Assembly: GCA_035465695.1 (NCBI GenBank)
Contig: DATIVR010000017.1
Location: forward strand, 71-64,070
DNA from: Gammaproteobacteria bacterium
GTDB lineage: Bacteria; Pseudomonadota; Gammaproteobacteria; Natronospirales; REEB76
Length of the DNA stretch: 64,000 nt
Direction of reading: 5' to 3'
The first letter of the stretch is position 1. Each line of letters begins with the position of its first letter. Below are positions 7,855 through 46,397 of the stretch, piece by piece. Both the position numbers and the translations under genes were made by a program. Below the pieces are notes generated by a model. It searched no databases and had not been told where the DNA came from. It worked only from the letters and a program-made list of their open reading frames with translations.

Positions 7855-9069
7855 TCAGTCCTTGCTGAAGGTCACATCCCCGGAACCCGCTTCCAGTTGC
7901 GCGGAACCCTTGCCGCCGTTCACGTCGGCCCGGATGGAATGGTGATGCGCCGAGACGTTCTGCATCCCCGGAAGATCCACATCGACATCGCCGGAGTCCG
8001 AGGTGGCGGTGATGTGCAAGGAGGGCACGCGGCTGGTATGTATCACGATGCTGCCGCTGCCACTCTCGGAAGTGAGCCGTACCAGGTCGCCCAAGTCACC
8101 GCTCAGGGTCACGTCGCCGCTGCCGGTGCTGGTCTCGATGACCTTGGTGGCGGTGAGACCGGTGGCTTTGATGTCGCCGGAACCTGCGGAGAGCTTCATG
8201 GAGCCGCTGGCGTCGTCTATGGTGATGCCACCGGAACCGGTGTCCAGCTCGACGCCGTTACCGGTGTACTTGCGCAGTTCCACGTCGCCAGAGCCGGTAC
8301 CGCCGCTGACGGTGCCGGCGATATCCTCCAGCTTCACGTCACCTGAGCCGGTCTTGACCAACACGTCGCCACCCTTCTGGTGGCGCATCTCCAGGTCGCC
8401 GGAACCGCTATGCAGGGTCACTGCACCGGACTGGGTATCGACGGTGACATCGCCGGAACCGGTCTCGGCACTCAGGCTACCGCTGCCGTCCTTGGCCTGG
8501 ATGTCTCCGGAGGCGCTCTTGAGGGCGAGGGACGAATCCACGCCGGAGGCGTCGATCTTGCCGACCTTGTTTTCGATATTCACGGTCAGGCCTTTCGGCG
8601 CATGCACCGTGAGATCGACGTGCAGGTTGGCGCCGGAACCGAAGGTACCGTTGGTGATATGCACACGGGTGTCTTCGTAGGAGGTGCTGGTCTCGCCCAT
8701 ACCGATGACGAATCCACTGCCATGGGCATAGTAGTAGGTCGTGTAGTCATCCAGCGGATAGTGGACGAACATCGTCACCTGGTTGCCGCTCACCTTAGTC
8801 TCGATGTTGATCTTGCCGGCGAGGGCCTGGGCCCCCTGGTCGGAACCGGCCGCCGCCACCACGTGGCTGTCCACCGCCAGGACGCCATCGCCGGCCGCCA
8901 CCACTGTCACGTGTCCCACCAAGTTGGTCAGATCCAGGCTTCCGCCCGCCTTGATGGCCGGGTTACGGTAAGTGGCGCTCTTGGTGAAGCTCTGGGCGGC
9001 GGCTACAGGCCCGGCGGCTAAGCCCGCCATCAGAGCGACGCAGATAAGGGTGGAGGTGCGCAGGGACAT
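7855..9069 (-). CDS. Exported Toastrack/DUF4097 (putative adhesin) repeat protein
   Basis: Signal peptide ...GPVAAAQS. At least 10 copies of [ST/A]GSGD[VI/L] spaced about 17-20 aa apart (TGSGDVTVDT, SGSGDLEMRH, TGSGDVKLED, TGSGDVELRK, AGSGDIKATG, TGSGDVTLSG, AGSGDVTFSK), typical of the DUF4097 beta-helix. AAGGAG SD. Confidence 0.8.
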   Translation of the reverse strand: MSLRTSTLICVALMAGLAAGPVAAAQSFTKSATYRNPAIKAGGSLDLTNLVGHVTVVAAGDGVLAVDSHVVAAAGSDQGAQALAGKINIETKVSGNQVTMFVHYPLDDYTTYYYAHGSGFVIGMGETSTSYEDTRVHITNGTFGSGANLHVDLTVHAPKGLTVNIENKVGKIDASGVDSSLALKSASGDIQAKDGSGSLSAETGSGDVTVDTQSGAVTLHSGSGDLEMRHQKGGDVLVKTGSGDVKLEDIAGTVSGGTGSGDVELRKYTGNGVELDTGSGGITIDDASGSMKLSAGSGDIKATGLTATKVIETSTGSGDVTLSGDLGDLVRLTSESGSGSIVIHTSRVPSLHITATSDSGDVDVDLPGMQNVSAHHHSIRADVNGGKGSAQLEAGSGDVTFSKD

Positions 9070-9114
9070 AGGCGGCTCCTTGGTCTTAGCCCAAGCAGGG
9101 CGTATTAGTGTATT

Positions 9115-9143
9115 ATCTTACTATAACACACCTGGGAGTTCAA
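9115..9143 (-). promoter_or_regulatory. Candidate sigma70 promoter for the DUF4097 gene
   Basis: Minus strand reads TTGAAC (9143-9138), a 17-nt spacer, then TAAGAT (9120-9115), in a locally AT-rich stretch 46 nt upstream of the ATG. Sequence match only. Confidence 0.35.
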
Positions 9144-38479: not shown

Positions 38480-38728
38480 GCGGTGAGACTCCGTGAATGC
38501 TGTGCGAGGGATTGCGCCAGGCGCGAAAGGGACGCGATTTTAGCACCCGCCTCGCGGCTGACTTCATCGGGATCTTCGCGGCCGCCCGTGGGCAGGACGG
38601 GACGGCGGGTGTCATATGGGTGTTATGGCCGAACCGCGCGAACACCTGTTCTCGCGCACATAATCAGGCTGTCGTGGCGGCCGTCAGATCAATCTAACCC
38701 TTTGTTTTACAAGACTAAATTAAACAAT

Positions 38729-38743
38729 GGAGAAATTTTCTCC
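38729..38743. promoter_or_regulatory. Inverted repeat GGAGAA-ATT-TTCTCC just upstream of the candidate -35
   Basis: A 6-bp perfect arm pair in a 33% G+C line (hand count of 38701-38760), 8 nt upstream of TTGCTT. Possible regulator site. Confidence 0.3.
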
Positions 38744-38750
38744 AGGACAC

Positions 38751-38778
38751 TTGCTTTCCCTGTGTTTGGTGTTATAGT
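38751..38778 (+). promoter_or_regulatory. Candidate sigma70 promoter with extended -10 for the repeat-protein/GntR cluster
   Basis: TTGCTT (38751-38756), a 16-nt spacer ending in TGT, then TATAGT (38773-38778), giving TGnTATAGT. About 70 nt upstream of the ATG at 38847. Confidence 0.45.
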
Positions 38779-38846
38779 TAGCTACAACACCACTACGGAA
38801 CGGCCCCGCTATCGGGACCGCAGGACAGAGAGAGAAGGAGAGTGCC

Positions 38847-39398
38847 ATGAACATGAATCGCATCGCCAAAGTGAGCGCCGCCGTTGCCTTAGGACTGGGT
38901 CTCCTGGGGGCGAGCCTGGCTGCCGACGCCGCCAGCGCCCGCAGCACCGCTGCCCGGTCCCAGAGTGGCGGCGTCGGCTATTCGTCTGCCTCCAGCAAGG
39001 TGATCCACTTAAACACCATCCTGGTGACCCGCGCCGACGTGGCAGGGATCGCCGAGCCGAAGGCTCAAGCGGCTTATGGCCGCACGGCCTACCTCGGCAG
39101 CATCCAGGTCACTGCCAGCGACAGCGCCGAAGCACGGGCTGCGGCTGCCAGCGTCAAGCCGGGTACGGTGTTCCTGGGAGCGGTGGTGGTCACCGCCAAG
39201 GACAGCGAAGAAGCTCGTTATGCCGTGGCCCAGGCCGCTGCTCAGCCGGGCACCGCCTTCCTCGGCACCGTGGAAGTCACCGCCCGGGACACCAAGCCGG
39301 CTTTCGTAGGCAAGACCGTCGTCGCCCTGCGCCGCATCGGCCGCAACGCCATGGTCTCCATGATCAGCGCGCTGGCCTTCGTGCGGGTAGGCGGCTAA
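38847..39398 (+). CDS. Small exported protein with four tandem TonB-box-like repeats and a hydrophobic C-terminal tail
   Basis: Strong SD AAGGAG 6 nt before the ATG. Signal peptide MNMNRIAKVSAAVALGLGLLGASLAA. Repeats: VIHLNTILVTRAD.., AYLGSIQVTASDSAEAR.., VFLGAVVVTAKDSEEAR.., AFLGTVEVTARD... Tail: AMVSMISALAFVRVGG. Confidence 0.75.
   Translation: MNMNRIAKVSAAVALGLGLLGASLAADAASARSTAARSQSGGVGYSSASSKVIHLNTILVTRADVAGIAEPKAQAAYGRTAYLGSIQVTASDSAEARAAAASVKPGTVFLGAVVVTAKDSEEARYAVAQAAAQPGTAFLGTVEVTARDTKPAFVGKTVVALRRIGRNAMVSMISALAFVRVGG
39000..39290 (+). repeat. Four in-frame tandem coding repeats of 27-29 aa (core [FYH]L[GN]x[IV]xVT[AR]xD)
   Basis: Residues 52-148 of the 183-aa protein. The repeats are clear at protein level but diverged at DNA level, so the duplication is not recent. 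Confidence 0.8.
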
Positions 39399-39442: not shown

Positions 39443-39817
39443 ATGGACATGGAACCGAACTGGAGCGACAACCAACCGATATACCGCCAACTGCGGGATC
39501 GGGTGGTGGCCATGATCCTCGAGGACGCCCTTAAGGAGGGCGACCCGCTGCCCTCCGTGCGCTCGGTAGCGGCCGAATATCAGATCAATCCACTCACGGT
39601 GCTGAAAGGCTACCAGTCGCTGGTGGATGAAGGCCTGGTGGAGAAGCGCCGCGGCCTGGGCATGTTCGTGAAGGAAGGCGCCCGCAAGAGCCTGATGAAG
39701 AACGAGCGTGAGCAGTTCCTGAAGGCGGAATGGCCGCAGATCCTGCAGCGTATACAGAGATTGGGGCTGGACCTGATGGAACTGGCCCGCGAAGCGGAAA
39801 AAGGAAGCAAGTCATGA
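39443..39817 (+). CDS. GntR-family transcriptional regulator, short YtrA-type
   Basis: 124 aa. PIYRQLRDRVVAMILEDALKEGDPLPSVRSVAAEYQINPLTVLKGYQSLVDEGLVEKRRGLGMFV is a winged HTH, followed by a short C-terminal helical tail (YtrA subfamily size). An alternative ATG lies at 39449. Confidence 0.88.
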   Translation: MDMEPNWSDNQPIYRQLRDRVVAMILEDALKEGDPLPSVRSVAAEYQINPLTVLKGYQSLVDEGLVEKRRGLGMFVKEGARKSLMKNEREQFLKAEWPQILQRIQRLGLDLMELAREAEKGSKS

Positions 39818-40671
39818 GCATGCTAGTCAAGGCCAGCGGCCTCACCAAGCGCTACGGCACCACCACCGCGCTGGACCACGTGGATTTCCAGATCGAAGAA
39901 GGTCGCATCGTGGGCCTGATCGGCCCCAATGGCGCGGGCAAGACCACGGCACTCAAGGCCATCCTCGGCCTCACCGAATTCGAGGGCGAGCTGGACGTGT
40001 TGGGCCATGACCCGCGCCAGGCCCGGCACAACCTGATGCGCGACGTCTGCTTCATCGCCGACGTGGCGGTGCTGCCGCGCTGGCTCAAGGTCAGCAATGC
40101 CATCGATTACGTGGAAGCAGTGCATCCCGGCTTCAGCCGCGAACGCGCCATGCACTTCCTCGATCGCACCAAGATCAAGCAGAAGTCCAAGGTAGGCGAA
40201 CTCTCCAAGGGCATGGTCACGCAGCTGCATCTGGCGCTGATCATGGCCATCGACGTGAAGCTCCTGGTGCTGGATGAACCGACCCTGGGTCTCGACATCC
40301 TGTACCGCAAGGAGTTCTACACCAGCCTGCTCAATGATTATTTCGACGGCCATCGCACCATCCTGGTCACCACCCACCAGGTGGAAGAGATCGAGAAGAT
40401 CCTGACTCATCTGATGTTCATCGACGGCGGCCGCGTCACCTTGGACCGCTCCATGGACGAGGTGGCGGAGGAATACACCGAGGTGCTGGTGGCCCAGGAC
40501 AAGGCCGCCGCCGCCCAGGCCATGAAACCACTCTACGAGCGCGAGGTGTTCGGCAAGAAGCTGTTCCTGTTCGAGGGTGTCTCGCGGGAGGAACTGGCCA
40601 AGCTCGGTGAGATCCACACCCCGAGTGTCGCCGACATCTTCGTGGCGAAGGTCAAAGGAGGCATGCAATGA
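39814..40671 (+). CDS. ABC transporter ATP-binding protein
   Basis: Start at ATG 39814 overlaps the GntR stop (ATGA). Walker A GPNGAGKTT, signature-like LSKGM, Walker B LLVLDEP and H-loop TTHQ. Confidence 0.92.
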   Translation: MSMLVKASGLTKRYGTTTALDHVDFQIEEGRIVGLIGPNGAGKTTALKAILGLTEFEGELDVLGHDPRQARHNLMRDVCFIADVAVLPRWLKVSNAIDYVEAVHPGFSRERAMHFLDRTKIKQKSKVGELSKGMVTQLHLALIMAIDVKLLVLDEPTLGLDILYRKEFYTSLLNDYFDGHRTILVTTHQVEEIEKILTHLMFIDGGRVTLDRSMDEVAEEYTEVLVAQDKAAAAQAMKPLYEREVFGKKLFLFEGVSREELAKLGEIHTPSVADIFVAKVKGGMQ

Positions 40672-41627
40672 AAGCCGGTGCCATGCAGGTCAACAAGATG
40701 CTCATCCGCCGGGAGTTCTGGGAGAACCGCTCGCTGTGGATCGTGTCGGTGGCGGTGGCAGGCATCCTCACCTTGCTCTCCGTCTACATGCTGGTGGCCA
40801 TACTCATCGGCCACAACCAGACCGTAAACAATGTGGATTTCGCCAACGGCGCGCACTTCCAGATAGACCAGCTGCCGGACTTTCGCGATGCCGACTCCGA
40901 TGCGGCCAACGCCTTCATGCGTATCGGTACCCTGACGCTGGGAGCGATGTTCAGCTTCATCATGCAGATCGTGGTGTTCTTCTACCTGCTGGACAGTCTG
41001 TACGCGGACCGCCGCGACCGCAGCATCCTCTTCTGGCGCTCCATGCCGGTGTCGGACGCCCGCACCGTGCTGGCCAAGCTCGCCACCGCCCTGCTCAGCG
41101 TCACCGCCATCACCTTCGTGGTGACCATCGCCTTCGAGTTGGTGCTGGTGGTGTTGGGGCTGATCCTGGGGTCGGTGATGGGCACGCATCCCTTCGCGCT
41201 GTTGGCCCATCCCTGGGCCTTCATCAGCGCCTGGTTGTTGCTGGCCTATGGGCTGATCGTCGCGGCCATCTGGTACCTGCCGTTCTACGGGTGGTACATG
41301 CTGGCCTCTAGCTGGGCCAAGAAGGCTCCGTTCCTGTGGGCGGTGCTGGTGCCGGTGGGCATCATGGGCGCCGAGGGCTGGGTGTTCCATACCGCCAACT
41401 TCGCCCGGATGATCTGGGGCTACAAGCAGCGCTGGCTCACCCTGGCTTTCAACGTCGACCCGCTACACATGAAACACAGCCTGGACGACGTGACCCTGGG
41501 CTCCGTGTTCACCATCGGTAACCTGGGAGAGCTGTTCGCGAGCCCCAGCCTGTGGGTCGGTCTCGCGGTGGCAGCGGCATTCATCTACGGCGCCATCTGG
41601 CTGCGCCGCAAGCGCAACGAGATCTGA
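40668..41627 (+). CDS. Polytopic membrane protein, probable permease partner of the ABC ATPase (ABC-2-like)
   Basis: Its ATG overlaps the ABC stop (ATGA, 40668-40671). About 6 hydrophobic helices. The LYADRRDRSILFWRSMPVS segment resembles the conserved loop of ABC-2 permeases. The family call is tentative. Confidence 0.68.
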   Translation: MKAGAMQVNKMLIRREFWENRSLWIVSVAVAGILTLLSVYMLVAILIGHNQTVNNVDFANGAHFQIDQLPDFRDADSDAANAFMRIGTLTLGAMFSFIMQIVVFFYLLDSLYADRRDRSILFWRSMPVSDARTVLAKLATALLSVTAITFVVTIAFELVLVVLGLILGSVMGTHPFALLAHPWAFISAWLLLAYGLIVAAIWYLPFYGWYMLASSWAKKAPFLWAVLVPVGIMGAEGWVFHTANFARMIWGYKQRWLTLAFNVDPLHMKHSLDDVTLGSVFTIGNLGELFASPSLWVGLAVAAAFIYGAIWLRRKRNEI

Positions 41628-41658: not shown

Positions 41659-41985
41659 ATGCGACGCATCCTCGTGACCCTGACTCTCTGTGCGGCCGTG
41701 GCCAACCTGGGCGGCTGTGTGCTGGCCCTCGGCAACGGCGGCGGCGACGATTCCAACTGGAGTTCCTCGGAACATCGGGACACCAGCCTGGCCCGCGCCA
41801 TCCGCTCCGGCCTGGACGCTGACCCGGCGACGCACGAAGCGGACCTCAGCGTCTCGACCGACGGCGGCCGCGTGTATCTGCACGGCACGGTGCATGCGCC
41901 TGAGACGCTGGAGAAAGCGGTACAGATCGCGCTGGCCAACCCGGATACCACCAGCGTGCGTTGTCATATCGATGTGATCCGCTGA
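41659..41985 (+). CDS. BON-domain lipoprotein
   Basis: 108 aa with lipobox NLGGC. LARAIRSGLDADPATHEADLSVSTDGGRVYLHGTVHAPETLEKAVQIA is a BON-domain pattern. GGAG SD 7 nt upstream. Confidence 0.8.
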   Translation: MRRILVTLTLCAAVANLGGCVLALGNGGGDDSNWSSSEHRDTSLARAIRSGLDADPATHEADLSVSTDGGRVYLHGTVHAPETLEKAVQIALANPDTTSVRCHIDVIR

Positions 41986-42010: not shown

Positions 42011-42760
42011 ATGAAGCACATCGCCGCTTTGTTGTTGCTATCGGCCCTGCCCCTGGCCGCCCATGCAGAGCCGACGTCCTCCATGCCGCGGATCCTGAAG
42101 TCGGAACTGGCTGCCACCGGCATCAACGGCGTGGCCTTGGAAGTGGGGGTGGGTGAACTGCACGTCACCACGTCCAATGACGACAAGGTGCATGTGCAAG
42201 TGACCTTGCGCCACAAGGAACGTCAGTTCCTGTGGTTCTTCCACTGGATGGACGGTGGCAGCGCGAGCCAGATCGCCGCGGCCACGATCCAACAGAAGCG
42301 CGGCGGTGACCGCCTGACGTTGTCGCTCAGCTATCCCCACAGCGGCGATGACGACATGAAGCAGGAATGGGATGTACAGATACCACCACGCCTGAGGCTC
42401 GACGCCACCATGGAGGTGGGCGACCTCGGGGTGGATGGCGTGAGCGGTGGCGTGACTGCCAGGCTCAATGTGGGTGAGGTGAGCATCGATGTGCCGCAGG
42501 GCAGCATCGACGCCAGCGTGGATGTGGGCGAGATCCGCGCCAAGACCGCCACCGCCAAACGTGGGAAGATCCAGCTCATCACTAACATCGGCGACGCGAT
42601 GCTGGTGATACAGGGTTCCGAGAGCGGCTATCATGACCACGGCGGTCTTGGCACCCGGGTGTCCTTGGACGGTTCCGGTCCCGACGCAGTGCAACTCAAG
42701 GTCAACATCGGCGACGTGTCCTTGCACGTGACGCCGGCGGATAAGGAAATAACCAGATGA
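42011..42760 (+). CDS. Exported Toastrack/DUF4097-like protein (paralog A)
   Basis: Signal peptide ...LPLAAHA. Repeated G[DE][VIL].[VI] rungs (VGELHVTT, VGDLGVDG, VGEVSIDV, VGEIRAKT, IGDAMLVI, IGDVSLHV). Confidence 0.7.
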   Translation: MKHIAALLLLSALPLAAHAEPTSSMPRILKSELAATGINGVALEVGVGELHVTTSNDDKVHVQVTLRHKERQFLWFFHWMDGGSASQIAAATIQQKRGGDRLTLSLSYPHSGDDDMKQEWDVQIPPRLRLDATMEVGDLGVDGVSGGVTARLNVGEVSIDVPQGSIDASVDVGEIRAKTATAKRGKIQLITNIGDAMLVIQGSESGYHDHGGLGTRVSLDGSGPDAVQLKVNIGDVSLHVTPADKEITR

Positions 42761-43572
42761 GACAGGTCGTCCTCGCATGTGGTGCAGTGGCGTTGGCGTT
42801 CGGGATGGCGGGATGCAGCACGCGCGACGCGCCTAGCGAGCCCGTGACCGTCACCGCCGATATCCCGGCCGCCGGTCTCCAGCATCTCAAATTCGACGGC
42901 ACTTCCGGCGACACCAAGATCGGCATATCCCCCGATGATGCCGTGCATGTGAAACTCGTGCTCCAACAGCAGGAGCGACGCATCCTGGGCATGCCCGTGG
43001 CCAGTGATGCCACCCTCAGGGACGTGGAGCGCGCGAAGATAGCCCAGGACAGGAAAGGTGATCTGCTCACCGTGACCGCCAGCTATCCCTCGGGAAGCAG
43101 CCACGATAGTGACGTGAAGACGCAGTGGACCATACAGGTCCCGGCCCGCTTCGGTGTGGACAGCACCATGAAGGCGGGGCGCATGATCATCGAGGGCATG
43201 ACGGGCGGCGTGAAGGCGCAGCTCGCGGCCGGCGAAGTGGTGATCCACGTGCCATCCGGACCCATCTATGGCCACCTCAGCGCCGGCAGGTTGCATGTGA
43301 TCTCGGATGCCTTGGAGCCGCGCAACGTGAAGGTGAAGAGCACCTTCGGCCTGGCGGTCCTCAGTCTGCATGGGGAGTATTACGGCCCGCCGCCGGAGAA
43401 GGATGACGGCTTCTGGAGTCATCTGCATATGTTCGGCAACACCCTGAACGAGCATGCAGGCGGCAAGGACGACGCCGACCTGGAAGTCACTGCCGGTCTC
43501 GCCGACCTGCGCTTCGGGCCGCTGGGCGACAAGGAAATACGCCGCGACATGTTCACGGAAGATATGGACTGA
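42757..43572 (+). CDS. Toastrack/DUF4097-like lipoprotein (paralog B)
   Basis: Its ATG overlaps the paralog A stop (ATGA, 42757-42760). Lipobox GMAGC. Co-linear with paralog A (DDAVHVKLVLQQQERRIL vs DDKVHVQVTLRHKERQFL; GDLLTVTASYPSG..WTIQVPARF vs GDRLTLSLSYPHSG..WDVQIPPRL). Confidence 0.7.
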   Translation: MRQVVLACGAVALAFGMAGCSTRDAPSEPVTVTADIPAAGLQHLKFDGTSGDTKIGISPDDAVHVKLVLQQQERRILGMPVASDATLRDVERAKIAQDRKGDLLTVTASYPSGSSHDSDVKTQWTIQVPARFGVDSTMKAGRMIIEGMTGGVKAQLAAGEVVIHVPSGPIYGHLSAGRLHVISDALEPRNVKVKSTFGLAVLSLHGEYYGPPPEKDDGFWSHLHMFGNTLNEHAGGKDDADLEVTAGLADLRFGPLGDKEIRRDMFTEDMD

Positions 43573-43620: not shown

Positions 43621-45504
43621 ATGATGCGCCGATTCGGCACCCTGCTGCTGTGCTGTGTGTTGCCGTCGGCGGTGCTGGCTGCGGCGCCCACCCCGCCGCC
43701 ACAGGACATCCCGTCCTTGCAGAGACAACTGGATAAGTTCCGGGCGGACGCCGGCGTCCCGGGGGTGGGCGTGGCGCTGTTCGACCGTAATGGCGTCACT
43801 TGGGCGGGCGGCCTGGGTTATGCCGATGTGGCGAAGCAGCAGCCGGTCACCGTCGATACGTTGTTCCGCGCCGGTTCCATCACCAAGGGTTTCGTGGCGG
43901 TGGCGCTGCTGCAACTGGTGGACCAAGGCAAGGTGCGCCTCGACGCGCGCCTGAAGGACATCGCGCCGGAGATCCCGGTGGATAACCCCTGGGAGGACAC
44001 CGACCCCGTCACCCTGGCAGAGGTGCTGGAGCACACCGCCGGTTTCGACGACATGCATTTCCCGCGGCTCTACAACTTCCACGAGCCGGCCGACATCCCG
44101 CTGCTCACGGTGATCCAACGCAGCAAGTCCGAACTCAGGGTGCGCTGGCGCCCCGGCACGCGCACCTCATATTCCAATCCCGACTATCTCATCGCCGGCT
44201 ACCTCATCGAGAAATTCACCGGCGAGCGCTACGAACAGTACGTCACCGACCATGTGCTGCGACCACTGGGGATGGCGCAGGCCAGTCTGGCGCCCGATCC
44301 CGCGTCGGTACCGGGGCTCGCGCAAGGTTACGAAGGCCAGCCGCAACAGCCCATCAGACCGGTGCCGATCTACCTGAGACCCGCCGGAGCGCTGGATGTC
44401 TCGCCCACTGAACTCGCGCACTTCGGCATCATGCTGCTGGATCGCGGCGAATGGCAGAACCAGCCGTTCCTCTCCGCTGCCAGCGTCACGCGCATGGAGA
44501 CTCCGGAGACCGGCGGTGGCGCACGTCACGGCCTCGACTATGGCTACGGCCTCGCCAACTACACGAGCTATATCGGCGCCGACGAGTTCCATGGCCATGA
44601 CGGCGGTATCGACGGGTTCATATCCCGCTATGCCTACGCCCCGGATCAGGGTCTCGGGTTCGTACTGATGGTGAACACCGGCAGCCCCGGCAAGTTCATG
44701 CGTGAGGCCTCCGGGCTCTTGGCGGGCTATCTCATGCGCGGCCAGCCCACGCCGGTGATGCCCACCCCGGTGCCGGCCTCCGCCACCACCCTGGCGCAGA
44801 TGAGTGGTTATTATCGCGAGCGAAATCCACGCAACCAGGTGCTGGCAGTGGGCGATTACCTGTTCGGCGTGGCACACGTCTTTCCGGACGGAAAAGGCGC
44901 CCTCCGGGTCAAAGGCCTGTTCGAGGATTCGGTCACGTTGCTGCCGGCGGGCGAAGGCCTGTGGCGCGCCGAGAGACACAGCGGCGCCGACACCGTCAGT
45001 TACGTGGATAAGGACGGCGACGAGGTGCTGGATCGCGAGCCCAATGCCAGCGGCGAATATCTGGTGAAGACCAGCTGGGTCTCAGCTTACCTGCCGACGT
45101 CGCTGGTCTTCGCCGCGCTGCTGCTCATGCTCTCCAGCGTGCTGTTCGCGCCGGTATGGGGCTTCCGCAAGCTCATCGGACACATGCGCGGGGCAACCCA
45201 CTGGAGCGTGCGGGTGCTGCCGCTCCTGGCCAGTCTCGCGCTAGCCTGCATGCTGGGCGGCGTCATCAGCATCGCGCCCATCGAACTCGGTGTGGCCAAT
45301 GCCAGGACCGTGTCGTTCTTCGTCTTCTCGCTGCTGTTCGCGGCCTTGAGCGTCGCTGCCGTGGTGCAAGCGGTGCGTTCCTATCGGTGGGACCTGAACC
45401 GCTGGATGCGCTGGCATTCGACGGCTGTAGCGGCGAGCTGCTTCGGTGTCACGCTGTTCCTGGCCTATTGGGGGATGATCGGCCTTCGGCTTTGGGCTTT
45501 CTAA
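43621..45504 (+). CDS. Serine hydrolase of the beta-lactamase/PBP (class C-like) family with a C-terminal 4-helix membrane anchor
   Basis: Signal peptide. SxxK = SITK in FRAGSITKGF. YxN = YSN. GHDGGIDGF takes the place of the third motif. The last ~160 aa contain four hydrophobic helices. Confidence 0.85.
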   Translation: MMRRFGTLLLCCVLPSAVLAAAPTPPPQDIPSLQRQLDKFRADAGVPGVGVALFDRNGVTWAGGLGYADVAKQQPVTVDTLFRAGSITKGFVAVALLQLVDQGKVRLDARLKDIAPEIPVDNPWEDTDPVTLAEVLEHTAGFDDMHFPRLYNFHEPADIPLLTVIQRSKSELRVRWRPGTRTSYSNPDYLIAGYLIEKFTGERYEQYVTDHVLRPLGMAQASLAPDPASVPGLAQGYEGQPQQPIRPVPIYLRPAGALDVSPTELAHFGIMLLDRGEWQNQPFLSAASVTRMETPETGGGARHGLDYGYGLANYTSYIGADEFHGHDGGIDGFISRYAYAPDQGLGFVLMVNTGSPGKFMREASGLLAGYLMRGQPTPVMPTPVPASATTLAQMSGYYRERNPRNQVLAVGDYLFGVAHVFPDGKGALRVKGLFEDSVTLLPAGEGLWRAERHSGADTVSYVDKDGDEVLDREPNASGEYLVKTSWVSAYLPTSLVFAALLLMLSSVLFAPVWGFRKLIGHMRGATHWSVRVLPLLASLALACMLGGVISIAPIELGVANARTVSFFVFSLLFAALSVAAVVQAVRSYRWDLNRWMRWHSTAVAASCFGVTLFLAYWGMIGLRLWAF

Positions 45505-45515
45505 GGAGATTATTG

Positions 45516-46397
45516 ATGCAAGCTGTCATCCCCATGGTGAATCGGCGACCCGGGCTGCTTTGGGCCATCCTGCAGTTCCCACTGACCCGCATCGTGATCG
45601 GCTTCCTGGCTATCGGTGTATGGGTCGCTGCGATCCAGATCGGCACCAAGCTGGCACACGTAGCACCGCGTACTCCACTGCATGCGCTCCTGGGCCTGCT
45701 CATACCCGTCGGCGTGCTGGTGATCTACGTGGTGTTCGTTCGTCTCCTGGAGAACCGGGCCGTGGCAGAGCTCGCACCCCACGGCGCGCAGCGGTTCGCG
45801 GCCCGCGGCATCCTCGTAGGGGCCGGGCTTTTCTGCCTGAGCATGCTGGTGATGAAGCTGTATGGGGCCTGGACCTATCTGGGTGTCGCACCCATCTCCA
45901 ACCTGGCCTATCCGTTCATCTCGGCATTCATCGCGGGCATCATGGAGGAGGCAGTGACACGGGGCATCCTGTTCCGCATCATCGAGGAGAGCCTGGGGAG
46001 CTGGATCGCCCTGGTCATCTCGGCGGCGATCTTCGGGTTGCTGCATGTCTTCAATCCCGGCGCCAGCGTGATCAGTACCGCAGCCATCGCCCTGGAAGCA
46101 GGCGTGTTGCTGGCCGCCGCCTACATGTATACCCGCAGCCTGTGGTTCGTCATGGGCCTGCACTTCGCCTGGAACTTCACCGAGGGCGGCATCTTCGCGA
46201 CGTCCGTGTCCGGCGGCCCTACCGAGGGCGTGATCCGGGTGGGCTTCGTCAGCGGCAAGGACTGGCTCACCGGCGGCCAATTCGGCCCCGAGGCCTCGCT
46301 GCCGGCAGTGCTGATTTGTCTCGCGGCGGGTATAGCGTTCATCATATTGAGCGTGCGTCGCGGCCGGATCGTCAGGCCCTTCTGGAACCGAAAGTAA
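45516..46397 (+). CDS. CPBP-family intramembrane glutamic endopeptidase (CAAX protease/Abi family)
   Basis: Start placed at ATG 45516 with AAGGAG 7 nt upstream. The track ORF 45156 extension overlaps the hydrolase gene. Motifs EEAVTR (EExxxR), FGLLH (FxxxH) and HFAWN (HxxxN). Confidence 0.85.
   Translation: MQAVIPMVNRRPGLLWAILQFPLTRIVIGFLAIGVWVAAIQIGTKLAHVAPRTPLHALLGLLIPVGVLVIYVVFVRLLENRAVAELAPHGAQRFAARGILVGAGLFCLSMLVMKLYGAWTYLGVAPISNLAYPFISAFIAGIMEEAVTRGILFRIIEESLGSWIALVISAAIFGLLHVFNPGASVISTAAIALEAGVLLAAAYMYTRSLWFVMGLHFAWNFTEGGIFATSVSGGPTEGVIRVGFVSGKDWLTGGQFGPEASLPAVLICLAAGIAFIILSVRRGRIVRPFWNRK

Follow-up and report, generated by a model that had tools for sequence, protein, structure and literature searches.

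The window analysed here is a 64,000-nucleotide (nt) stretch of the gammaproteobacterial assembly GCA_035465695.1 (contig DATIVR010000017.1, positions 71 to 64,070 of the forward strand; GTDB order Natronospirales). At positions 38847-39398 of its plus strand lies an open reading frame (ORF) of 183 amino acids (aa), the sole long open frame there in a sensible context, which is preceded by the Shine-Dalgarno sequence AAGGAG at 38835-38840, six bases 5' of the ORF. Its product, called the repeat protein in what follows, begins with a signal peptide and contains four repeats of 27-29 aa, just as a preliminary description of this DNA had reported. That description likened the repeats to the TonB boxes of TonB-dependent receptors, and the present analysis concerns this likeness, the operon headed by the gene, and the role that the protein might play in it. 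The gene and its product comprise the following features.

38847..39398, plus strand: coding sequence of the repeat protein (P0001), with about 85 homologs, all without a name
38847..38939, plus strand: Sec-type signal peptide, residues 1 to about 28-31, with AxA sites A26-D27-A28 and A29-S30-A31, read from the sequence
39003..39038, plus strand: core of repeat 1, residues 53-64, IHLNTILVTRAD, scoring 15.3 with a hidden Markov model (HMM) of the repeat
39087..39122, plus strand: core of repeat 2, residues 81-92, AYLGSIQVTASD, followed by the weakly predicted helix SAEARAAAA (94-101/102 in AlphaFold2)
39168..39203, plus strand: core of repeat 3, residues 108-119, VFLGAVVVTAKD, followed by the weakly predicted helix SEEARYAVAQAAA (121-132 in AlphaFold2)
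39255..39290, plus strand: core of repeat 4, residues 137-148, AFLGTVEVTARD, with a repeat-HMM score of 19.1
39294..39395, plus strand: C-terminal tail, residues 150-183, ending in ISALAFVRVGG, with L176, F178, R180 and G183 invariant or nearly so

The N-terminus, read by eye, consists of MNMNRIAK, a hydrophobic core and AADA/ASA, and is likely cut after residue 28 or 31; in the alignment of homologs, the ADAAS at the end of the signal is nearly invariant within the genus. The mature protein is 23% alanine and has neither cysteine nor tryptophan. The hydrophobic tail of the preliminary description is real and conserved, can be described as amphipathic or hydrophobic, terminates in F-x-R-x-G-G, and recurs as the same type in two divergent sister genera (g2 and g3). 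A fifth, degenerate repeat copy that had been placed at the entry to this tail (FVGKTVVAL) is not supported as a repeat, since the repeat HMM does not match it and distant homologs read P-V-I-G-x-L-x-A-A at this place.

The cores of the four repeats, LNTILVTRAD (residues 55-64), LGSIQVTASD (83-92), LGAVVVTAKD (110-119) and LGTVEVTARD (139-148), follow one another at intervals of 28, 27 and 29 residues and share the common core [YFH]-L-G-x-[IV]-x-V-T-[APR]-x-D. All four fit the TonB-box strand consensus [DEG]-T-[ILVM]-x-V-T-A, and the segments S[AE]EAR and PGT previously noted after the cores of repeats 2 and 3 are indeed found there (as SAEAR and SEEAR for the former). The mature protein has four occurrences of the word L[GN].[IV].VT..D, whereas of 200,000 shuffled versions of it 199,997 had none and the other three had one each. 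A tandem repeat search of the gene at the DNA level found none, which rules out a recent DNA duplication as the origin of the repeats and indicates that the duplication is old and has been retained at the protein level. Alignments of 30 and 77 homologs show invariant or near-invariant columns at L55, G56, I58, V60, T61, D64, L110, G111, V115, T116, D119, L139, G140 and V144, and the 305 unique repeat copies of the family have L in 97%, G in 99%, [IV] in 99%, V in 100% and T in 89%. Along with the last residues of the protein, the repeat core is the most conserved part of the roughly 85 homologs, and strong selection on the repeat motif can be regarded as settled. As to the VTA core, whose conservation among orthologs the preliminary description had made a touchstone, L-G-x-[IV]-x-V-T is kept at 89-100%, whereas the A that follows is kept at 38% and is often P or R. 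Since orthologs keep the repeat core, the objection that they might lack it falls away.

Searches of Pfam and NCBIfam (E up to 1) returned no relevant domain anywhere in the repeat protein, and a profile search of PDB sequences (E up to 10) returned no relative of it; a plug or barrel, a bacteriocin receptor-binding domain and a toxic domain are all missing by these three sources. AlphaFold2, run with 30 and then with 77 sequences, gave mean predicted local distance difference test (pLDDT) scores of 40.7 and 47.6 and no fold, which may partly reflect the shallowness of the alignments. The sole elements in these models are two weak helices at residues 94-102 and 121-132. The lack of a modelled fold suggests that the repeat protein is a disordered carrier of short linear motifs.

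Relatives of the repeat protein number 35 in a word-indexed search and 85 in a profile search, and an exhaustive search of 1.84 billion representatives yielded 20 related clusters; a match of 1866 aa in the latter (P0049) is a low-complexity, repetitive translation and irrelevant. All homologs are unnamed or hypothetical, the few labelled ones coming from gammaproteobacterial metagenome-assembled genomes (MAGs). Their repeats number three to four in the alignments and two to four across relatives, and are separated by variable spacers. A profile search of 66 genomes of the window's order gave matches in one family only, with strong matches in the window's genus and divergent forms in g2 and g3, which have two to three repeats of the type LGTIVVTP.DAD, the same tail, and signal sequences that may be uncleaved anchors. 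The repeat-protein family is thus shown to be undescribed and confined to one family-level clade of small-genome Gammaproteobacteria, in keeping with the preliminary description, whose author did not recognise it; no known unrelated repeat family was matched.

The genome from which the window derives has seven receptors with a Plug domain and eight TonB_C matches, the TonB_C proteins being encoded on contigs C123, C103, C171, C26 and C132. Six of these receptors have, ahead of the plug, the TonB boxes ARLGGVDVTATR; AQLGKIEVTGSR or AQLGKIEVTGTR (three receptors); ADIGAVEVTATP; and TELGTVTVTDTR, whereas the seventh receptor reads ELANLPVTSVSK, deviating from the common TonB-box word. The genome's own boxes include LGGVDVTA, LGKIEVTG, IGAVEVTA and LGTVTVTD, an example of a receptor peptide being TAQLGKIEVTGTRIKR, and the receptors of relatives carry the same word as the six, several meaningless upstream translations, from minus-strand matches in the wrong orientation, being disregarded. 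In a table by position, comparing the 305 repeat copies with 15 distinct receptor boxes, the two sets are alike at T(-3), L0, G1, [TSK]2, [IV]3, V5 and T6, and both have the lineage-typical G where E. coli has D. Profile searches link the two sets in both directions. When the repeat HMM was run on 21,916 six-frame ORF segments of the genome, three receptor TonB boxes were among the top 32 domain hits. A reverse profile, trained solely on the TonB boxes of receptors from this bacterial family, ranked repeat 4 as 5th of the 21,916 (score 12.0, level with three real receptors) and repeats 2 and 3 as 11th and 14th, the repeat protein being the best non-receptor match. From the two-way profile matches and the position table, the likeness of the repeats to TonB boxes, taken as a likeness of sequence, is real, lineage-matched and far beyond chance, so that the comparison with the genome's own receptors speaks for the initial labelling of the repeats as TonB-box-like.

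A further TonB-box-like word was seen outside the window, on the minus strand of contig C71 of the same genome, where two paralogous exported ORFs of about 190-200 aa without a Pfam match read RFDDP..TLQLGE[IV]xVTGQKQ directly after the signal peptide. With the receptor TonB-box profile these paralogs take places 12 and 13, and they resemble TonB-dependent bacteriocins in having this single word at the mature N-terminus.

The repeat-protein gene is the first of an operon with the order repeat protein, GntR repressor, ATP-binding cassette (ABC) ATPase and ABC-2-like permease. In every locus examined for this order, on metagenome contigs and MAGs from three genera, it lies 44-60 nt upstream of the gene for a YtrA-type GntR protein of 122-124 aa. 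In the window, the genes that follow are these.

39443..39817, plus strand: YtrA-type GntR repressor, 124 aa, with PF00392 (8.3e-13) as its only match
39814..40671, plus strand: ABC ATPase, 285 aa, PF00005 2.2e-21, with an ATGA overlap with the GntR gene
40668..41627, plus strand: ABC-2-like permease, 319 aa, with weak ABC2_membrane matches, fast evolving
41659-41985, plus strand: BON-domain protein, BON 3.7e-10
42011-42760 and 42757-43572, plus strand: two paralogous exported beta-rich proteins, weakly Toastrack-like (Toast_rack_N, E=0.046)
43621-45504, plus strand: membrane-anchored beta-lactamase-fold hydrolase, PF00144 5.3e-65
45516-46397, plus strand: CPBP/Rce1-like protease, PF02517 1.7e-18, with the motifs EEAVTR, FGLLH and HFAWN visible

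The repressor aligns over its full length with the models of PmtR and Rv1152, and the best NCBIfam models of the ATPase are PmtA and DrrA, in all cases under the cut-offs. Repressor orthologs, 67-96% identical, are present in all 13 genera of the order and in 58 of 66 genomes, many of which are incomplete. A short GntR protein whose C-terminal part is reduced, with the genes for an ABC ATPase and a permease directly behind its own, is kept across the order, throughout which the locus is core and syntenic beside mdh; the linkage of repeat gene, GntR gene and ABC genes persists even where mdh has shifted 2-5 kb away. Between genera the repressor, the ATPase and mdh are 75-83% identical (the ATPase 76-83%) and the permease 34-38%, while the repeat protein goes undetected by tblastn at E<=1e-5; within the genus, identities are 96% for the repressor, 90% for the ATPase, 65% for the permease and 50% for the repeat protein. 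The disparity between ATPase and permease is an unusually uneven rate within one transporter.

Upstream of the repeat-protein gene, a promoter-like site is overlapped by a palindrome, and a related palindrome lies elsewhere in the window.

38751..38778, plus strand: promoter-like site read from the sequence, with -35 TTGCTT (38751-38756), a 16-nt spacer and -10 TATAGT (38773-38778); a generic promoter scan did not list it
38769..38790, no strand: operator-like palindrome GTGTTATAGTTAGCTACAACAC over the -10, nearly identical in all loci
9108..9129, no strand: second operator-like site, GTGTATTATCTTACTATAACAC on the plus strand, with 4 mismatches to the main operator

All 14 loci compared, from three genera, have a block CTTGC-N17-TAGTGTTATAGT upstream of the gene, or in more detail CTTGC-N17-TAGTGTTATAGTTA[GT]CTA[CT]AACAC, with the palindrome over the -10. 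The palindrome is presumed to be the site of the YtrA-type GntR repressor. Two other elements were seen in this upstream region. At 38620-38650, and likewise upstream of four other loci (L016, L041, L042 and L043), there is a weaker pair of half-sites resembling GTGTTATAG/CTATAACAC with a longer spacer, which is nearer to the divergent mdh and may be a second operator. An inverted repeat, TGGAGAAATTTTCTCCA, at 38728-38744 stands in an AT-rich stretch upstream of the -35 and is partly conserved in relatives.

The operator pattern TGTTATA-N6-TAYAACA (at most one mismatch) matches about three to four sites in each of seven genomes from the order, as counted from the places listed, whereas the reversed control pattern has matches in only one of the seven (two matches). 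The site at 9108..9129 lies some 40 nt before the start codon, at 9069, of a minus-strand gene (7855-9069) for an exported 404-aa Toastrack protein with a DUF4097 match of 1.7e-24. Its ortholog in a sister genus (genome G065) also has a site directly upstream, and the Toastrack gene probably belongs to the same regulon. Outside the window, a perfect site at C24:3262-3281 precedes the gene for an HlyD-type adaptor lipoprotein, followed by that for a DUF2884 protein (8.6e-13), and another at C57:63214-63233 precedes the gene for an outer-membrane efflux protein of the TolC-like kind; both sites recur, conserved, in front of the orthologs from further genera and families of this order. This arrangement predicts that the ABC-2 pump, the HlyD-type adaptor and the TolC-like channel form a three-part efflux system under one YtrA-type repressor. 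With operator-like sites also standing before the adaptor, TolC-like and Toastrack genes, the regulon looks like an inducible efflux and envelope-defence set and not like an iron regulon.

Repressor, ATPase and permease are all present in 14 of 14 loci from eight other families of the order. Across the sister-family loci L074-L086, the gap between operator and repressor gene is occupied in seven families by a small protein (100-185 aa) that starts with a signal and has a short C-terminus of hydrophobic or amphipathic character; in one family there is no small gene between operator and repressor gene. Homology of these small proteins to the repeat protein was considered and rejected, as hhalign gave probabilities of 0.1-0.2%, indicating that no homology is detectable. 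The sister families keep the operon with unrelated small proteins, so that the place itself is conserved while what fills it is hypervariable, and the TonB-box-like repeats represent an innovation within a single family.

The principal gated route through the outer membrane of Gram-negative bacteria, for iron chelates, vitamin B12 and sugars, is transport that depends on TonB, and it is exploited by colicins, pyocins, microcins, sideromycins and phages. The Ton system can be inhibited with synthetic TonB-box peptides or with TonB fragments made in excess. The repeats, together with the place of their gene at the head of a repressor-controlled efflux and envelope-defence operon, lead to the tentative reading that the repeat protein may be a natural TonB competitor. 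Upon release of the repressor, the protein would enter the periplasm, where its repeated strands would dock on the C-terminal domain of TonB by beta-strand augmentation, competing with the TonB boxes of receptors, and the tail may keep it near the inner membrane or the pump. Such docking would throttle the TonB-dependent import of bacteriocins, sideromycin-like antibiotics and phage while the efflux pump is being induced, in effect shutting the gate and pumping out. Of the readings considered this one is the most specific and the most testable, and it fits the closing of import during the induction of efflux. The fullest version, according to which the YtrA-type repressor senses the load on the ABC pump and one promoter then drives both the three-part efflux system and a cell-encoded, soluble, disordered competitor whose four TonB boxes occupy TonB and close all TonB-dependent entry to bacteriocins, sideromycin-like antibiotics and phages, is more speculative still. 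We know of no natural soluble TonB-box protein, and literature searches for natural TonB-box decoys found nothing relevant.

Several observations weigh against a TonB competitor. Position -1 is Y, F or H in the repeats and Q or E in the receptors, position +8 also differs (A versus T), and position +9 is D in 75% of the repeats versus R or K in 68% of the receptor boxes. The conserved repeat motif is moreover longer than a TonB box, which together with the deviating flanks suggests tuning to a partner besides or instead of TonB. No covariation of repeats and receptor boxes was seen across genera: in g2 and g3 the repeats turn into LGTIVVTP.DAD while the receptors keep LGKIEVTG. With its residues L, G, I, V and T, the motif may reflect a general preference for beta-strands and nothing else, and the shallow alignments behind the unfolded models count here as well. 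No gene for TonB, ExbBD or a receptor was found in the operon or beside the other operator sites, and the small proteins that occupy the same position in sister families are without LGxIxVT repeats and unrelated. Owing to the deviating flanks, the regulon without Ton genes and the unrelated occupants in sister families, the proposal that the repeat protein competes for TonB stays well short of being probable, although it heads the readings considered.

Next in rank, and itself doubtful, is the possibility that the repeat protein is a periplasmic accessory whose repeats dock on an envelope protein of the operon or regulon (a Toastrack-like protein, the BON protein, the HlyD-type adaptor or the permease) and whose tail anchors it to the pump, the TonB-box likeness then being a coincidence between beta-augmentation motifs. 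The linkage of the gene to GntR, ABC ATPase and permease where synteny with mdh is broken agrees with such a role, as do the conserved motif flanks, which are unlike those of receptors. The repeat protein (about 25-50% identity) and the permease (34-65%) both evolve fast compared with ATPase and repressor (75-96%), which fits mutual contact, and a short tail, hydrophobic or amphipathic, likewise closes the small proteins at the same position in sister families. It has been proposed that proteins dock on the surfaces of Toastrack sheets, and operons combining GNTR-HTH, ABC, permease, Toastrack and DUF2884 genes are on record (PMC11237479). The one specific lead to a docking partner, however, failed: the C-terminus of the 42011-42760 protein (NIGDVSLHVTPADKEITR, with a strand HVTPAD) resembles the repeats, as if mimicking a Toastrack end strand, but its orthologs read NVGEVSLHL/RI... 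without VTPAD, and the resemblance was therefore rejected as a coincidence. The BON and Toastrack-like genes of the operon also track the repeats poorly, one sister family (f6) having such a gene and no repeats, and an accessory role leaves unexplained why three repeats score like genuine TonB boxes.

Less likely again, and rather improbable in itself, is that the protein is cargo of the pump: a Sec-exported disordered protein that would leave the periplasm by way of the presumably co-regulated machinery of ABC-2 pump, HlyD-type adaptor and TolC-like channel. Outside the cell it might form a surface coat, or act as a TonB-dependent bacteriocin or microcin-like agent, the TonB boxes driving import through the receptors of a competitor, the hydrophobic tail being the active part, and the ABC pump and CPBP protease giving self-protection. 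The predicted regulon does supply an envelope-spanning exporter with all three of its components, the small gene stands first in the operon, and a protein predicted to be unfolded is suited to being threaded through a channel. Between sister families the occupant of the position is hypervariable, and the fast-evolving subunit of the transporter is the substrate-facing permease. The layout of small exported protein, regulator, ABC transporter and CPBP protease is reminiscent of bacteriocin loci, bacteriocin resistance involves joint action of CaaX proteases and ABC pumps (bioRxiv 10.64898/2026.02.18.706565), and the best NCBIfam models of repressor and ATPase, under cut-offs as said, are PmtR and PmtA of phenol-soluble modulin (PSM) export. 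The locus is nevertheless core and syntenic beside mdh across the order and not patchy in the manner of bacteriocin loci; the cytotoxic domain and the dedicated leader of TonB-dependent bacteriocins and class II microcins are missing (a Sec signal stands in place of a double-glycine leader); four TonB boxes are without precedent in bacteriocins; and the signals of g2 and g3 may be uncleaved anchors.

Two further readings are very improbable. Tandem strand-forming repeats in a Sec-exported protein might assemble into a functional amyloid or beta-solenoid, but AlphaFold2 shows neither a solenoid (such as the stacked one of CsgA or FapC) nor any other fold, Ala-rich helical spacers alternate with the repeats, the composition is not rich in Q, N or G, and the operon has no curli- or Fap-like gene for a dedicated outer-membrane secretion partner. 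Equally remote is a multi-copy precursor from which the CPBP protease or the serine hydrolase, for example, would release four peptides some 28 aa long, a reading for which the regular 27-29-aa units, their conserved boundaries G-T-x-[YF]-L-G and a protease and a hydrolase encoded in the operon would speak, and against which stand the varying repeat number (two to four), units that differ in length and content, poorly conserved spacers, the absence of a modifying enzyme, and the fact that we know of no precedent for such Sec-exported multi-peptide precursors.

The importance of these observations is twofold. A tandem, lineage-matched TonB-box family wired to an efflux regulon is a directly testable candidate which, if the TonB competitor were true, would add a new layer of Ton-system control and a defence logic so far undescribed. 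Independently of what the repeat protein does, a conserved, predicted YtrA-type regulon is defined in an uncultured gammaproteobacterial order, its members being the ABC-2 pump, HlyD-type adaptor, TolC-like channel, Toastrack and DUF2884 proteins and CPBP protease.

Among known systems, the closest comparison for the repeats is with TonB boxes themselves. The family consensus G-T-I-x-V-T-A parallels the D-T-[IL]-V-V-T-A of E. coli (BtuB DTLVVTA, FepA DTIVVTA). The repeats correspond to the L-G-x-[IV]-x-V-T of the genome's own receptors, lie in a region without a predicted fold, much as the TonB-box regions of colicins are disordered, and belong to a protein whose predicted compartment also holds the C-terminal domain of TonB. 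Unlike in known TonB-box proteins, two to four of them follow one another in tandem in a stand-alone protein of 15 kDa that lacks a plug, a barrel, a receptor-binding domain and a toxic domain, and their flanks deviate from those of receptor boxes.

A second comparison is with small Sec-dependent proteins that ABC/TolC-type systems export. The dispersin Aap and CexE leave the cell through the Aat system and the enterotoxin STII through MacAB-TolC, and the repeat protein, whose export beyond the periplasm is hypothetical, is like them a small Sec-signal protein, predicted to share its regulation with an ABC transporter, an adaptor and a TolC-like channel. It differs from dispersin, CexE and STII in having no sequence similarity to them and in that its ABC part is of the ABC-2 type and not MacB or AatP.

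The operon as a whole resembles YtrA-type modules. The ytrGABCDEF operon of B. subtilis begins with the gene for YtrG, which is described as a small transmembrane protein and has no known role (PMC12772383). In the MbrR-MbrAB system of S. salivarius, loading of the pump with bacteriocin causes the ATPase to capture the repressor, and additional ABC pumps as well as a CaaX protease belong to the MbrR regulon (bioRxiv 10.64898/2026.02.18.706565). Operons of the type GNTR-HTH/ABC/permease/Toastrack/DUF2884 have been described by comparative genomics (PMC11237479), and the DUF4097 and DUF2884 proteins encoded behind operator-like sites in the present genome conform to this type. Shared with these modules are a short GntR repressor, an ABC ATPase, a permease and an operator-like palindrome at several promoters, as well as a regulon, here a predicted one, with further export parts, a CaaX/CPBP protease, Toastrack and DUF2884 proteins. 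The small first gene has its counterpart in ytrGABCDEF, but since YtrG is described as a small transmembrane protein, its resemblance to the repeat protein is positional only. What sets the present system apart is that it is Gram-negative, adds an HlyD-type adaptor and a TolC-like channel, and has an exported repeat protein as its lead gene product. The transporter-plus-repressor defence module, hitherto described in Gram-positive bacteria, is thereby extended to Gram-negatives.

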